The notes beneath the pieces were generated by a model. The model ran no database searches. It saw only the letters and a list, made by a program, of their open reading frames with translations, and was not told where the DNA came from. The translations under genes and the position numbers were made by a program. DNA of 64,000 nt from a virus, in IMG/VR virus record IMGVR_UViG_3300046694_000223, positions 1-64,000 of that record; one strand, given 5' to 3'. This document shows positions 24,298-58,973 of this stretch, piece after piece (positions within the stretch are counted from its first letter, which is position 1; each line of letters begins with the position of its first letter).

Positions 24298-27200
24298 TTA
24301 ATTTATTTTTTTTCTTTCGGTTTCAACTTTTATCGAACCGTCCTTACCAATTGCAGTTATAAGCATTGTTGTGTGCTTAACATTGGTATCTTTGTATCGA
24401 TGTGGCTTAAACTGTGCTCCTCTACGGTATCCACATAACACCAGTTTATTTCCCCTAGCAAACCAAGTCTTTTCTACAATCTGCTTTCCTCCATCGGGTT
24501 TTGGTTTAGACACTTGCTTATTGTAGTACGCAAATTCACCATCAGAAAATTTAAGTGTCACTACTCCATCAGTTGTTAGAAGGGCTACAGTGTGTTTGTT
24601 CTTGTCCTTGTCTAATACGGTTCCGGTAATAAAATCAAGTTTGAACTTAGGTCTGCTATTACCATTTCTAAATGTCATCGTTGAAGCAACTATTGGTTCT
24701 TCAGGCAGATCTCCAAATTTACTGATTCCATAACGTGTATAGTCGATGTGTTCAAGTTCATGTTCTGTATAATAGAATGACAATGAATCCATTTCCCACT
24801 TGCTAACTGTGCCTTCGGCAACTGATTCCCATTCCATTTCATATTGCTTGGTATTAAATTGCTCTAGGGTTTCAGGAAGTGACAGCCACTCTCTAATTCC
24901 ATCCATTTTCTTATCGTATTCTTTTTTAAATACATTCTCGCTGATCACTGGGAAGTTGCCACTGTACTCTTTAATTCCCTGGTCAGAGAAATTCTCATAA
25001 TAAAATGGAGTAGAAATCTTATCTAGTGCATAATACTTGTCTTTATCAACTTTTCTATGTATTTTCTTCATTACATACTTTCTGAAATTGAAGAGCTTAG
25101 AATACTGTTGCATCTCTTGAGGGATAAGCCCACATTCAATTACAGCGTTCAGGTTCTGAAGATTTAGTTTTTCTTTTGGTATGTAGAGTTTGTTTACAAA
25201 AGTCTTCATTACTGAAATACGATCCCCGAATGTCTCGAAACACCCTGCTTTAATTAGTTGAATTAACTGAGCTTTCTTGATAATGGAAGTATCATACATT
25301 CGTACCAAGAAATCATCAAATGAAGTGTATGGACGATTCTGAATAATATGCTGTACGACATCATCTCCAATACCATTAATACCTTTTAATCCAAAAATGA
25401 TTTGATCCTCTACTAAGTCAGGTTTAAATCCGAAATGTGCTTTATTGATATTGGGTAAACCAATCTTAACTCCATGACTTTGCATACTGCCAATTGCTGA
25501 AGCAATCTTTCCATAGTTGGTGGATTGAGATTTAGAATCTTCGTCTTCGTCATCTATTGATGCTGAGTTAACTGTGAGACATGCGGTTCTCCAATAGATA
25601 GGATCATAATTAATGTTGAGATTGGCTTCTTGTAGCGCGATTACAGAATATGCAAGTGTATGCAAAATACTAAACGAATATCCAAGCTGTCGTACTATTT
25701 GAACATTCCATACATAATCCAGCATCTCAACACGATTGCCTAGTTCTAATCCTTTTTTGTAAAACTTCGCTTTGATTTCTTCAATTTCTTCAGCTTTCTT
25801 CTTCGCAATAATTTTACGTAATTTGTTTGCTTCTTGAATAGAAAATCCAGCAATAGCCTTATCCATTGACAGAAGCATAATAGATTCTTGTGTGTCGGCA
25901 ACTCCATTGAGTGAAAGTAAATGTTTCTCTAAAACTTTGATTTCTTCATCGCTTAAGTTGTGCTTATGCATCTCTTCATACCATAGTGAGATGTCATTTT
26001 TAAATCTTATAAAACTGTCAATTGGAGTTTCCATCCCATGACCGCCACCCATTAGTCTCATCAATGAATTGGCAGATGCAAGTTCAATTAGATTGGCTGG
26101 TTTGGTTCGCTTAACAGTTTGAATGCCAATTTCTGTTGAAAATTGAAACAAATCAGTAATACTATCGGAACCAATTAAGTCGTAAACGTGTGGGCTTTTT
26201 ATATCTATTACAGTGGGATGTAGATACTTGTTATATGTTTTTCGTATTGTTCCTTGCCACTCAATTAAGTTATCTTCTAGAAGCATATCTAACGCCACAC
26301 GAATTTTATCTAGGCCTTCTATCGTCAAAAGATCAAATTTCATGTTGGACACAGCTTCACAATCTTCAAGACTAAACTGAGTAACATGTGTTCCATTGGG
26401 TGCTGTCATAATAGCGTTTGTTTTGTAGTACTCTTCGTTAAAAAGAATAGCACCACTGGCATGTATACTCCGCTTATTAACAAGTCCTTCAATCTTCATG
26501 GAAACATTAAGCCAGTTCTCGTGCTTATTTATTCCATCAATAAACTCTTGTACTGGTTTACGTTCTTTTTCTTCATTACCATTTACACAATCAGATAGAG
26601 TCCAGTTACTACCACGTTCAAATGGTATAAGGCCTGATATATGCATTGCAGTATCGTTATCAATGCCAAGACCTCTAGCAGCACTTTGAACGGCAGACTT
26701 GGAAGCCTCTGTTCCGAATGTACAAACCTGCAATACTCTGTCTTCGCCAAAGTGCTTTTTTAATTGTCTAAATATTTGTCCTCGTTTTGCGGCTTCAGTG
26801 TCAATATCAATATCGGGAAATTCGGGTCTTTCTGCTGTTAAGTGTCTCCAGTGAGGCATTTCAATCCCATACTCCAGTGGATTGATTTGAGTTATTCCCA
26901 TCAGGAAACATACAATCCATCCAGCCGAAGAACCACGGGAAGGGCCAACCAAACTATCTCCACATTCATCGTCCCATATTACATTAACAATCTCACGAAC
27001 CGTTATGTAGTAACTCGCTACAGATTGATTGACTACTTGTGATGTCTTCCACAATTCGCCTAATTCAATATCAATTCGAGCAGCAACTTGATGAAGTTTT
27101 TCTTTAGAATATGTATTATAAGGCAGTAATTCGTAAAACCCATCTTCGATCAATTTGACTATGTATCTATCTTGTGAGTTATCAGAATGAGCCATCTTAT

Positions 27201-28239
27201 TTATGTATTCGTATTTATCATAGATTGATTTAAACAATCCCCTAAGTTCAAATTCAGGCAGTTCGATTTTGGGAATAATAGTTGGCTTTAGTAGTGTGTA
27301 TTCTTCAATCTTGTTTCCAATTTCCATTGTATTGTCTAATGCAATTTTGATTACGTCATGATCCAAGTAACTTAAACGTTCTGTGATTTCTTCTTTAGTT
27401 TGAACAAATGTTGCTTCATAAAATGAATCGACTTCACGTTCAGCGTCTTTTGCATTGAGAAATGCTCTGTGAACAACTCGATCATCTGGACGTAAGAAAT
27501 GGCTATCTGTTGTGATTATGTATTTGAGATTATAAATCGCTGCAAGCTTAAGTAATTCTTTATTACAAAAAATTTGTTCGTCTGAATATGCTGGTTGAAG
27601 CTCCAGATAGAAGTCTTCTCTTCCAAATACACCAATACACCAGTCAGTGAAATCACACGCTTTTTTATAGCTTTCGTCTGCTTTATTTTTATCATTGTTT
27701 TCTAGATGAATTTTCATTTCAAGTAAATAAATACAATGAGGAGAACCAAGACATGCGCTTGAAGCGATCAAATGTCCCGGATCTCTTTTGGTGATGGATT
27801 CAACCAAACGGCGTTCGGTAGGTGTTCTTAACATTGGCCCTGTGTAAAACGAACTAATCCATGCCTGAGAACTCATATAGCGAATTTGCTCATGCCCGAT
27901 TTCATCCTTGGCAAGCAAAAGAAAATGTGGAAATTTTGTGACTCCAGATTTATAGTTATTTTTACTGTCTTCTGTGCTTTCAACTAAATAAATCTCATTT
28001 CCCAAGATGAGTTTAAAGTCTTCTGATATCTTACCTTTTTCTTTTAAATTGGTGACTGTCTGGATAGCCTTTACGTGGGCGCTTATGGACTCATGATCTG
28101 TTATGGCTACTCCCTTATGACCCATATCGTATGCAGTTTGTATAAGCCCTTCTACAGTGTTTGTGGTATCACGTAGCTTGAGGTTTGATCCTCTATCGAT
28201 ATGATTATGAAGTAAAATTGAATCACATTGGTTACACAA
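24298..28239 (-). CDS. dnaE: DNA polymerase III alpha subunit (phage DnaE, YorL-like)
   Basis: PHP domain (AITDHE, TTDSH), RGSSAG, PDIDID, SIHASG, KFDLL, YSFSILH; uninterrupted 1313 aa. Confidence 0.96.
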   Translation of the reverse strand: MCNQCDSILLHNHIDRGSNLKLRDTTNTVEGLIQTAYDMGHKGVAITDHESISAHVKAIQTVTNLKEKGKISEDFKLILGNEIYLVESTEDSKNNYKSGVTKFPHFLLLAKDEIGHEQIRYMSSQAWISSFYTGPMLRTPTERRLVESITKRDPGHLIASSACLGSPHCIYLLEMKIHLENNDKNKADESYKKACDFTDWCIGVFGREDFYLELQPAYSDEQIFCNKELLKLAAIYNLKYIITTDSHFLRPDDRVVHRAFLNAKDAEREVDSFYEATFVQTKEEITERLSYLDHDVIKIALDNTMEIGNKIEEYTLLKPTIIPKIELPEFELRGLFKSIYDKYEYINKMAHSDNSQDRYIVKLIEDGFYELLPYNTYSKEKLHQVAARIDIELGELWKTSQVVNQSVASYYITVREIVNVIWDDECGDSLVGPSRGSSAGWIVCFLMGITQINPLEYGIEMPHWRHLTAERPEFPDIDIDTEAAKRGQIFRQLKKHFGEDRVLQVCTFGTEASKSAVQSAARGLGIDNDTAMHISGLIPFERGSNWTLSDCVNGNEEKERKPVQEFIDGINKHENWLNVSMKIEGLVNKRSIHASGAILFNEEYYKTNAIMTAPNGTHVTQFSLEDCEAVSNMKFDLLTIEGLDKIRVALDMLLEDNLIEWQGTIRKTYNKYLHPTVIDIKSPHVYDLIGSDSITDLFQFSTEIGIQTVKRTKPANLIELASANSLMRLMGGGHGMETPIDSFIRFKNDISLWYEEMHKHNLSDEEIKVLEKHLLSLNGVADTQESIMLLSMDKAIAGFSIQEANKLRKIIAKKKAEEIEEIKAKFYKKGLELGNRVEMLDYVWNVQIVRQLGYSFSILHTLAYSVIALQEANLNINYDPIYWRTACLTVNSASIDDEDEDSKSQSTNYGKIASAIGSMQSHGVKIGLPNINKAHFGFKPDLVEDQIIFGLKGINGIGDDVVQHIIQNRPYTSFDDFLVRMYDTSIIKKAQLIQLIKAGCFETFGDRISVMKTFVNKLYIPKEKLNLQNLNAVIECGLIPQEMQQYSKLFNFRKYVMKKIHRKVDKDKYYALDKISTPFYYENFSDQGIKEYSGNFPVISENVFKKEYDKKMDGIREWLSLPETLEQFNTKQYEMEWESVAEGTVSKWEMDSLSFYYTEHELEHIDYTRYGISKFGDLPEEPIVASTMTFRNGNSRPKFKLDFITGTVLDKDKNKHTVALLTTDGVVTLKFSDGEFAYYNKQVSKPKPDGGKQIVEKTWFARGNKLVLCGYRRGAQFKPHRYKDTNVKHTTMLITAIGKDGSIKVETERKKIN

Positions 28240-57326: not shown

Positions 57327-58973
57327 TTAAATATTTTCCCGATAATCATCAATGAAAAGTTGCAGTGTTTTGGTGATTTTAAACTTGGGTTTATAAACTT
57401 TCCAGATATTAATGTTGAGCGATCCAATAGCTTCAATCTCTGAAAACACCGGGACAGAATTAAAATATTGCTCATCTGTCTTAAACTTCATTAACTGAAT
57501 CTTATCACAGTCAACCTTCACTGTGTTTGCGGATTTACCCATAAGCTTTTTATCAGAGACGAATAACCCTCTAATGAGAAACTTTCCCTGCTTGAATTTG
57601 TTTCCTGTTATCCGGTAAAACTCATTTAGATAATTGACTAAGTTTTCATTAACATCAGACAAGTTAAACTCTAGATCATAATACAGAGAATCATCTGCTT
57701 CAAAGTTGGTCAATTTTTTGTTCAGTTCATACTGGAGTTTGCCTAGATTGACTTTGAGCAACTGTACTCCTCCAGCACCTGGATGACCTCCTGTATAAAA
57801 AACATTGTCACAGTCAGCAAGTAAATCCAACATTGAGAAATCTTCAAGTCCTCGGAAGCTTCCTGCGTATGCATCTTCGGTGTCGCCTTCACCCAATACA
57901 ATTGCTGGCCTATTAAATGTTCTAGATAGCTCTTGCGCTACAAGCCCCATCATCCCTTTTCCAAGTGATGGATCAACAACGATAATTGTCTTATTTGATT
58001 CGTCTATTGTTGGTTTCAACCGTTGCAAAGCTTCAGCTTGAACCTCCTTACGCTTCTCGTTAGCCTTTACCAACTCTTTAGCCAATCCTTTAATGTCGTC
58101 TGAGTCGTCTACGCACATCAGAAAGTCAATTGCTAACTGAATATTATCGGCTCGTGTAGCAGCCGTTACAGCAGGACTCACGCCGTACAAGAAGTCTGTC
58201 GCAGATAGGTTTAATAGATCATAATTCATTGCTTGAAACAACGCCTTAAGTCCTGCATGATGTAGATTTTTTAATGACTGCTTTGCGTAATATCTATTCT
58301 CTAATTCCAACATAGACATCATATCAGCCATAAGTGCAAATCCGGGCAGATCATCGAGCTTGTTTGAATAATATGTATTCATGTAATCATCAATGACTTG
58401 ACAAACTTTAAAGACCAACAATCCTCCGCAAGCATTTTTATTAGGGTAGGAGCATCCCTCTTGCTGGGGATTGACTAAAATAGCATACGGATTATCTACT
58501 GTAACCGTATGATGGTCGATTATTAAACAGTCAATTCCTTTTGATGATAGTAATTTCATTGTTTCAACGTCATTTGATGAACTGTCTACTGCAATCAGTA
58601 CCTTTGTCGATTCAGGAATTGTTTCAACTAGTCCATTAATATTATGCCCCTCAGAGCGTTCATTGCACACGTAATATACTTCGTCGGTGAAATTAAGTAG
58701 ATACTTATACATTGTCACCAACGAAGTTACACCGTCATAGTCTAGCTAATCAGGGTCGCCAGTAATTGTAATAGGCTCACGGTTCCGAATTGCAAGGATG
58801 ATTCGTGTAGCCAATTCGTTAATATTCTTAAGTAGATAGGAATCACAAATTACATTAGACAGTGGATTCAGGAATTGATCAATGTTTGTGATTCCGTTTA
58901 ATTTTGCAAGCATAGAATATGTATTATCATATGATTCAAATGGAATGACAGGTGTTTTTTGTTTCCATTTCAT
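57327..58973 (-). CDS. recJ: RecJ-like DHH exonuclease (YorK-like) with one in-frame TAG at 58746-58748
   Basis: The two track ORFs share a frame: ITGDPD*LDYDGVTS, then IAVDSS, IIDHH, ADMM, GSFR, GGHPGAGG. Confidence 0.9.

Follow-up and report, generated by a model that had tools for sequence, protein, structure and literature searches.

A candidate minimal translational bypass in the catalytic motif of a Paenibacillus phage recJ gene

Results

Nine extra nucleotides interrupt DHH motif I of recJ

The window, by which we mean the whole 64,000-nt stretch of DNA that was analysed (positions 1 to 64,000 of IMG/VR record IMGVR_UViG_3300046694_000223), belongs to a complete, AT-rich virus genome of 166,580 bp with terminal repeats, an SPbeta-like Paenibacillus phage. 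A 1,313-codon open frame on the minus strand (24298-28239) encodes a DNA polymerase III alpha-type enzyme, with Pfam matches to DNA_pol3_alpha, finger, and HHH_6; it fits an SPbeta-like replication module.

A RecJ-type gene, recJ, occupies minus-strand positions 58973-57327 (Table 1). From its ATG at 58973 to the TAA at 57329-57327 it forms one frame whose sole internal stop is a TAG (58748-58746), and DHH motif I is broken at this point as G-D-P-D, TAG, Leu, Asp, Y-D-G. The minus-strand letters run GGC GAC CCT GAT TAG CTA GAC TAT GAC GGT, exactly the GAT-TAG-CTA-GAC break (58751-58740) that a sequence-only reading of this DNA had described; 75 codons flank the 9 nt on the 5' side and 470 on the 3' side. 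The same reading had held that removal of the 9 nt would give GDPDYDGVTS. An intact relative, locus L031, carries that very motif, and it is colinear and gap-free with motif I of a solved RecJ, 8y30 (GDYDADGVTA). The 9 nt in the window are therefore extra, and a three-residue insertion would sit among the metal ligands, as had been supposed for simple read-through.

A Pfam search with the downstream part gave DHH and RecJ_OB above the cut-off and DHHA1 just below it; the DHH match opens only at profile position 20 and so does not include motif I. An intact homologue matched RecJ in the PDB with E = 5e-35. The domains are those of a RecJ-like DHH phosphoesterase, with motif I (DxDxDG) complete only after the hop that we propose below.

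Table 1. Features of recJ in window coordinates, and candidate recoding layouts at motif I of diverged recJ-like genes in locus coordinates.
Feature	Position	Strand	Observations
recJ part 1, ATG to putative take-off Asp codon, 75 codons, ends G-D-P-D	58749..58973	-	18 homologous 75-aa fragments end at the same residue; dN/dS 0.03-0.15 among interrupted alleles
Putative take-off codon GAT, second Asp of motif I	58749..58751	-	GAT in 11/11 distinct interrupted alleles
TAG stop, predicted in the A site at take-off	58746..58748	-	Invariant in interrupted alleles despite saturated synonymous sites
Predicted untranslated gap, 6 nt (TAG + CTA)	58743..58748	-	5, 6, or 7 nt in relatives; middle bases differ
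CTA codon within the gap	58743..58745	-	Direct reading
Putative landing codon GAC (Asp), first GAY triplet in any frame past the take-off	58740..58742	-	GAT or GAC in every allele, always abutting (Y/F)DG
Predicted resume codon TAT	58737..58739	-	Direct reading
recJ part 2, resume TAT (Y-D-G-V-T-S...) to last sense codon, 470 codons; DHH, DHHA1, and RecJ OB domains	57330..58739	-	Intact in 11/11 alleles; dN/dS ~0.05 against L027 at dS 1.39
recJ stop codon TAA	57327..57329	-	Direct reading
Candidate Val stop-hop, GTT-TGA-GTA, 6-nt shift; endonuclease upstream	L072:3430-3460		Would join D-T-D-V to D-G
Candidate Tyr hop, TAT-TAG-T-TAT, 7 nt	L146:2005-2030		Past the Tyr codon
Candidate +1 shift, CCC_TGA_C	L008:2470-2482; L147:1965-1985; L207 (about 6137)	- (L207)	Past the first Asp-Pro
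Candidate +1 shift, CCC_TGA_C; endonuclease upstream	L071:3570-3580		Past the second Asp-Pro
Candidate +1 shift, CTT_TGA_C, prfB heptamer	L070:270-285		Would join D-K-D-L to D-G

The same codon is interrupted in relatives, at three lengths

Megablast against phage GenBank records returned no DNA-level match to recJ, and tblastn against the same records gave matches to RecJ-type genes in large phages of the Bacillus group, none above 38% identity. Closer relatives came from Paenibacillus phages and prophages in IMG/VR, isolate genomes, and a large protein collection, in which many homologous proteins start just past motif I. The 75-residue N-terminal fragment, used as a query, identified 18 protein clusters with 76-97% identity, all ending in G-D-P-D and including several complete P. 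polymyxa genomes, P. donghaensis, P. odorifer, and P. spiritus. The insert lies at the identical codon in 11 distinct relatives (69-90% identical), and the window's own TAG-CTA gap recurs in L064, from a second sample, at a contig edge. Since the site is broken in these 11 relatives and 18 clusters, from independent isolates and metagenomes, it reflects neither chance nor an assembly slip, and the assembly error that had been listed as an alternative can be dropped.

All 11 distinct interrupted alleles share the take-off GAT, the adjoining TAG, and a landing GAT or GAC followed by (Tyr/Phe)-Asp-Gly. One tRNA reads both members of the pair, which is GAT to GAC in the window and GAT to either GAT or GAC across the 11 alleles. 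Between these fixed points the gap is TAGCA, TAGCAA, TAGCTA, TAGTTA, TAGTTAG, TAGTTGG, TAGTTCA, or TAGTTAA. If recJ were bypassed, phage homologues had been expected to carry Asp-stop-Nx-Asp gaps of differing length; they do, with a predicted P-site shift of 8, 9, or 10 nt. A further 17 distinct alleles are intact, with G-D-P-D-(Y/F/M)-D-G or similar at motif I.

One intact recJ, in a P. dendrobii prophage (L003:2740-2810, the same as L044 and L004), has a TAA two codons 5' of the position aligned to the window ATG, and the first ATG, GTG, or TTG comes 17 codons later. An ATC that has a strong AAGGAGG 8 nt to its 5' side may serve as the initiation codon.

Both halves of recJ are maintained as coding sequence

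Searches with tblastn found the N- and C-terminal parts full-length and stop-free in every interrupted allele, in keeping with the earlier description of two intact halves (11/11 alleles, dN/dS 0.03-0.15). These ratios are pairwise Nei-Gojobori estimates, and dS is saturated in most comparisons; the N-terminal part gave the range just cited among interrupted alleles, and the C-terminal part gave about 0.05-0.08 where dS was measurable, the window and L027 being separated by a dS of 1.39. Insertions and deletions have occurred several times inside the gap and nowhere else: across ~1,635 flanking coding nucleotides, no allele has an indel, a stop, or a frameshift.

These observations bear on whether recJ is simply dead, its insert a recurrent recent scar (from endonuclease cutting and repair, for example) and its intact flanks a sign of youth. 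On a quick IQ-TREE maximum-likelihood tree, interrupted alleles intermingle with intact ones, and no fewer than six changes are required by supported branches, as recurrent scarring would have it, and endonuclease genes lie near some of the alleles. The same tree, however, places 14 interrupted alleles in one 17-row clade. Synonymous sites are saturated between the interrupted alleles, yet dN/dS does not exceed 0.15 and the coding sequence outside the gap is clean; indels fall only inside it, and the TAG and the landing Asp are kept while the other gap bases drift in sequence and length. We consider a dead gene very improbable.

Gene callers annotate two ORFs at this locus, and split enzymes beside homing endonucleases are known (T4 genes 39/60 and nrdA, for example), which would accord with a 75-residue N-terminal fragment and an independently started C-terminal fragment that assemble into an active enzyme. 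No start codon lies at or near the landing site, however, and no ribosome-binding site was seen there; the sequence-only reading had likewise noticed no clear one for the downstream half. In the L054-type alleles the first in-frame ATG, GTG, or TTG is more than 20 codons past the landing site, and the YDGVTSLV codons immediately 3' of that site show synonymous changes only, so that the second half cannot be started on its own. Two polypeptides would also mean that neither the third Asp nor the Gly in motif I is translated. We therefore rate this arrangement as extremely unlikely.

Frame relations among the alleles argue against read-through and frameshifting

TAG terminates 15 of the 99 ORFs of at least 150 aa in the phage genome, which shows the genetic code to be standard, and no tRNA genes, suppressor or unusual ones included, were found in its 166.6 kb. 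Stop-codon reassignment and suppressor read-through were rejected on these two grounds. Decoding of the TAG in the in-frame 9-nt allele by a near-cognate tRNA would produce RecJ with X-Leu-Asp added in motif I. The window insert is indeed a multiple of three, and the difference between L062 and the window at the gap codon (TTA against CTA) is synonymous, both encoding Leu. The gap codon is nevertheless not conserved, being CAA in another in-frame allele, the phage has no suppressor tRNA, the added residues would land among the metal ligands, and the 10- and 8-nt versions carried by the nearest relatives could not be rescued in this way. Near-cognate read-through thus seems quite improbable for the window, and the 8- and 10-nt alleles rule out both read-through and single frameshifts as a general mechanism.

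A prfB-type single-nucleotide frameshift was rejected in its own right, as the window insert is 9 nt and a second TAG closes the +1 frame in the 10-nt alleles. The 10-nt allele that occurs most often has no frame that stays open through the site. The gap thus has the property expected of undecoded sequence in a bypass, a length that is free of frame (8, 9, or 10 nt) between flanks that jointly encode one conserved protein.

The 9 nt might instead be lost before translation, either through RNA processing or through frequent, precise DNA deletion between short Asp-codon repeats. Short direct repeats do border the gap, intact alleles nested among interrupted ones suggest precise loss over evolutionary time, and L067 has a true group I intron here, as described below. 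The repeat in the window, however, is GA only, with the third base unmatched, and 9 nt are too short for a self-splicing intron and matched no Rfam family. A group I intron in the window's recJ was likewise rejected, the insert being only 9 nt and a catalytic core being found only in the distant L067. To our knowledge, no bacterial system excises 8-10 nt from mRNA. We regard removal before translation as exceedingly improbable.

A matched-codon hop is the preferred reading

We propose that recJ encodes one 545-residue RecJ-type DHH exonuclease by way of a short translational bypass, a reading to which the comparative evidence leads us to give a probability of roughly 0.78. The ribosome would decode GAT, the second Asp codon of motif I, and hold peptidyl-tRNA-Asp in the P site as the TAG enters the A site. 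In some ribosomes the tRNA would unpair from GAT, the mRNA would slip by 9 nt, and the tRNA would re-pair on GAC; decoding would restart at TAT, restoring G-D-P-D-Y-D-G. Other ribosomes would terminate and release a 75-residue fragment. A matched-Asp hop of peptidyl-tRNA-Asp alone fits all three frame relations. A bypass had been put forward as a candidate from the window by itself; the invariant take-off, stop, and landing Asp, together with purifying selection on both halves, now lend it support. We infer the hop from features that were observed directly, namely, the anatomy of the junction, its conservation at variable length, that selection, and the lack of a usable start.

We looked around the site for signals that might promote hopping. 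RNAalifold (consensus, -4 kcal/mol), single folds, and a comparison with all possible gap fillers revealed no conserved RNA structure at the site, and the window's own fold was no better than those of shuffled sequences (z = +0.7); on these figures, a T4-type take-off stem-loop holding the take-off codon and stop was rejected. An 8-bp mini-hairpin, the TAG falling in its loop, is strong in L054 and L055 alone; in other alleles it does not outdo random gap fillers. The upstream peptide is conserved, but alike in interrupted and intact alleles, with no hop-specific residue; the final 17 residues of the intact P0016 and the interrupted L055 are identical. A Shine-Dalgarno-like GGAG 5' of the site was rejected as a signal, for it occurs in many alleles, intact ones too, and the window is without it. 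The hop thus looks signal-poor and may be inefficient: with neither a stimulatory RNA structure nor a hop-specific nascent peptide found, its efficiency is probably low, and since hops that are not programmed are reported to be low-level, the yield from recJ may be small.

A genome-wide heuristic, which required a stop followed within 18 nt by a matched codon and after that by a long open frame, produced 26 hits and no second hop candidate in the phage genome. The hits other than recJ were overlapping frames or ordinary starts with a ribosome-binding site and ATG, one false hit lying inside the DNA polymerase III alpha ORF. A pattern scan of the metagenome gave 14 hits, two of them recJ (both already known) and the others due to chance.

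Very few natural cases of translational bypassing are known, and we found no paper on recoding in recJ. The gene for the large terminase in Streptomyces phage Hau3 contains a candidate 10-nt (and 7-nt) bypass with mass-spectrometry support in E. coli (PMC10732093). Like recJ, it is a phage gene interrupted in a conserved region by 8-10 nt that cannot be translated, and its frame can be restored by bypass alone. In Hau3, however, UUA, a rare sense codon and a proposed regulatory sensor of tRNA supply, takes the A-site position, whereas in recJ a stop does; no endonuclease link is reported for Hau3, and in recJ the many natural variants of gap length show frame independence by comparison. Synthetic "stop-hops" made in E. 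coli (Weiss et al. 1987), as cited in later accounts (PMC5009743; PMC10732093), were laboratory constructs of low yield in which peptidyl-tRNA leaves a codon beside a stop to pair anew with a matched codon close by, without special signals. The recJ site resembles them in this respect, and it differs in being a natural and conserved layout with 1-4 further bases between stop and landing codon. According to a review, no natural in-frame stop-hop was known, although short matched-codon bypass had long been presumed (PMC5009743). The byps of Magnusiomyces capitatus mitochondria (27-55 nt, 81 per genome) are likewise short inserts in coding sequence, mobile or recurrent, that are skipped in translation; they have relaxed pairing rules and an unused sense codon in the A site (PMC5009743), in contrast to recJ, a single site in its genome with strict Asp-Asp matching.

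Set beside these systems, the predicted recJ hop quite probably represents a new, minimal, natural form of translational bypassing. The family would offer a hop reduced to a codon, a stop, 2-4 bases, and a matched codon, with a natural mutant series of gap lengths and sequences; cultivable Paenibacillus prophages carry the series, which makes the ribosome's requirements for such a hop directly testable. It would also serve as a warning for annotation, in that phage genes called "split" or "pseudogene" at catalytic motifs may be functional.

LAGLIDADG endonucleases are linked to the motif I site

A LAGLIDADG ORF of ~300 residues overlaps the start of recJ in 4 of 11 interrupted alleles (the L054 type, L055, L059, and L062) and in 0 of 17 intact ones, and the endonucleases are 39-58% identical to one another. 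The hypergeometric p value is ~0.016 with kinship ignored, for loci that are few and phylogenetically related. No endonuclease gene was found beside recJ in the window. A search of IMG/VR with these endonucleases led to L067, where a 49%-identical LAGLIDADG ORF lies inside a 1.26-kb insertion (L067:2412-3680) that splits a distant recJ-like gene at the same spot in motif I, between ...Y-D-V-D and L-D-G.... This insertion holds a group I intron core (RF00028, 77 bits, E = 1.6e-19), which was missed when six loci were searched together at the Rfam gathering threshold and found in E-value mode on the insert alone. The presence of both a LAGLIDADG gene and a group I intron at motif I of L067 points to motif-I DNA as a probable homing site of this family of endonucleases.

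Toward the 3' end of the L067 insert, the Ser-Tyr-Asp codons that close exon 1 recur, though with another codon for Ser. The motif-restoring junction is without the usual U(-1) and terminal G, which makes it no more than a candidate for the splice.

Comparison of L054, which has both endonuclease and insert, with the intact L029 gave 75-81% identity upstream of the site and mostly 94-98% downstream of it, with 85-88% in two windows of the alignment; such a step would be expected if transfer took the endonuclease gene together with recJ part 1 and the gap. In P. polymyxa CP049598 (L053:1628-2535), the LAGLIDADG gene 5' of recJ is frameshifted (275 + 32 residues), and it is apparently decaying while the insert is kept.

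The gap in T4 gene 60 is reported to protect against nicking by MobA and to persist after loss of the endonuclease (10.1101/2022.08.31.505936; PMC5462505; PMC5009743). By analogy, we put it at somewhat better than an even chance that the recJ insert interrupts the target of a LAGLIDADG enzyme homing to motif I and so confers immunity to cutting; in the window phage, the endonuclease gene would have been lost and the gap left behind. The mobile-element scar that the sequence-only reading had offered as an alternative to bypassing thus gains ground as the origin of the gap, given the intron element at this site in L067 and the endonuclease genes that flank some interrupted alleles, and loses it as a rival to the hop. 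The two systems share a UAG directly past the take-off codon, an insert in the metal-binding motif of a DNA enzyme, a link to homing endonucleases (for recJ a probable one), and a gap that is kept where the endonuclease is absent. They differ in scale, T4 gene 60 having a 47-nt gap and a shift of 50 and recJ a gap of 5-7 nt and a shift of 8-10, and in signals, since T4 gene 60, whose bypass efficiency is about 40-50%, has the take-off stem-loop and nascent-peptide signal of which neither was found for recJ. The tRNA is Gly in T4 and Asp in recJ, and the endonucleases are HNH and LAGLIDADG, respectively; unlike in T4, the recJ host is Gram-positive and the endonuclease ORF does not divide the gene. 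The idea of a bypass gap as endonuclease immunity, developed for T4, would thereby extend to another endonuclease family, gene, and host phylum.

Other interruptions fall within the same 12 nucleotides of motif I

Diverged recJ-like genes carry other interruptions inside the same 12 nt (Table 1). In five of these loci (L008, L147, L207, L071, and L070), a 1-nt insertion forms CCC_TGA_C or CTT_TGA_C, classic +1 shifty-stop heptamers. Both ORFs are intact in L008, L070, L071, L072, L146, and L147, the loci in which both sides could be read.

Motif I of phage RecJ might be a recoding hot spot produced by homing-endonuclease pressure, where at least five ribosomal devices that break the target and keep the enzyme have become fixed, in separate lineages, within 12 nt; we see the odds on this as evenly balanced. 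The count comprises the Asp hops of 8-10 nt, the Tyr hop of 7 nt, Val-stop-Val, CCC_TGA_C, and CTT_TGA_C, with a group I intron in another lineage. If this is true, recoding sites generally have a source in selfish endonucleases over the course of evolution, and natural stop-hops that are poor in signals are common among phages.

Three further recJ-like genes lie directly 3' of LAGLIDADG genes (L126:3160-3180, L121:3283-3300, and L068:3263-3520). Two of them start with Met at motif I (M-C-D-A-D-G) and have no in-frame 75-residue N-terminal part; the other is intact, its motif containing an additional residue (Y-D-A-A-D-C-D-G).
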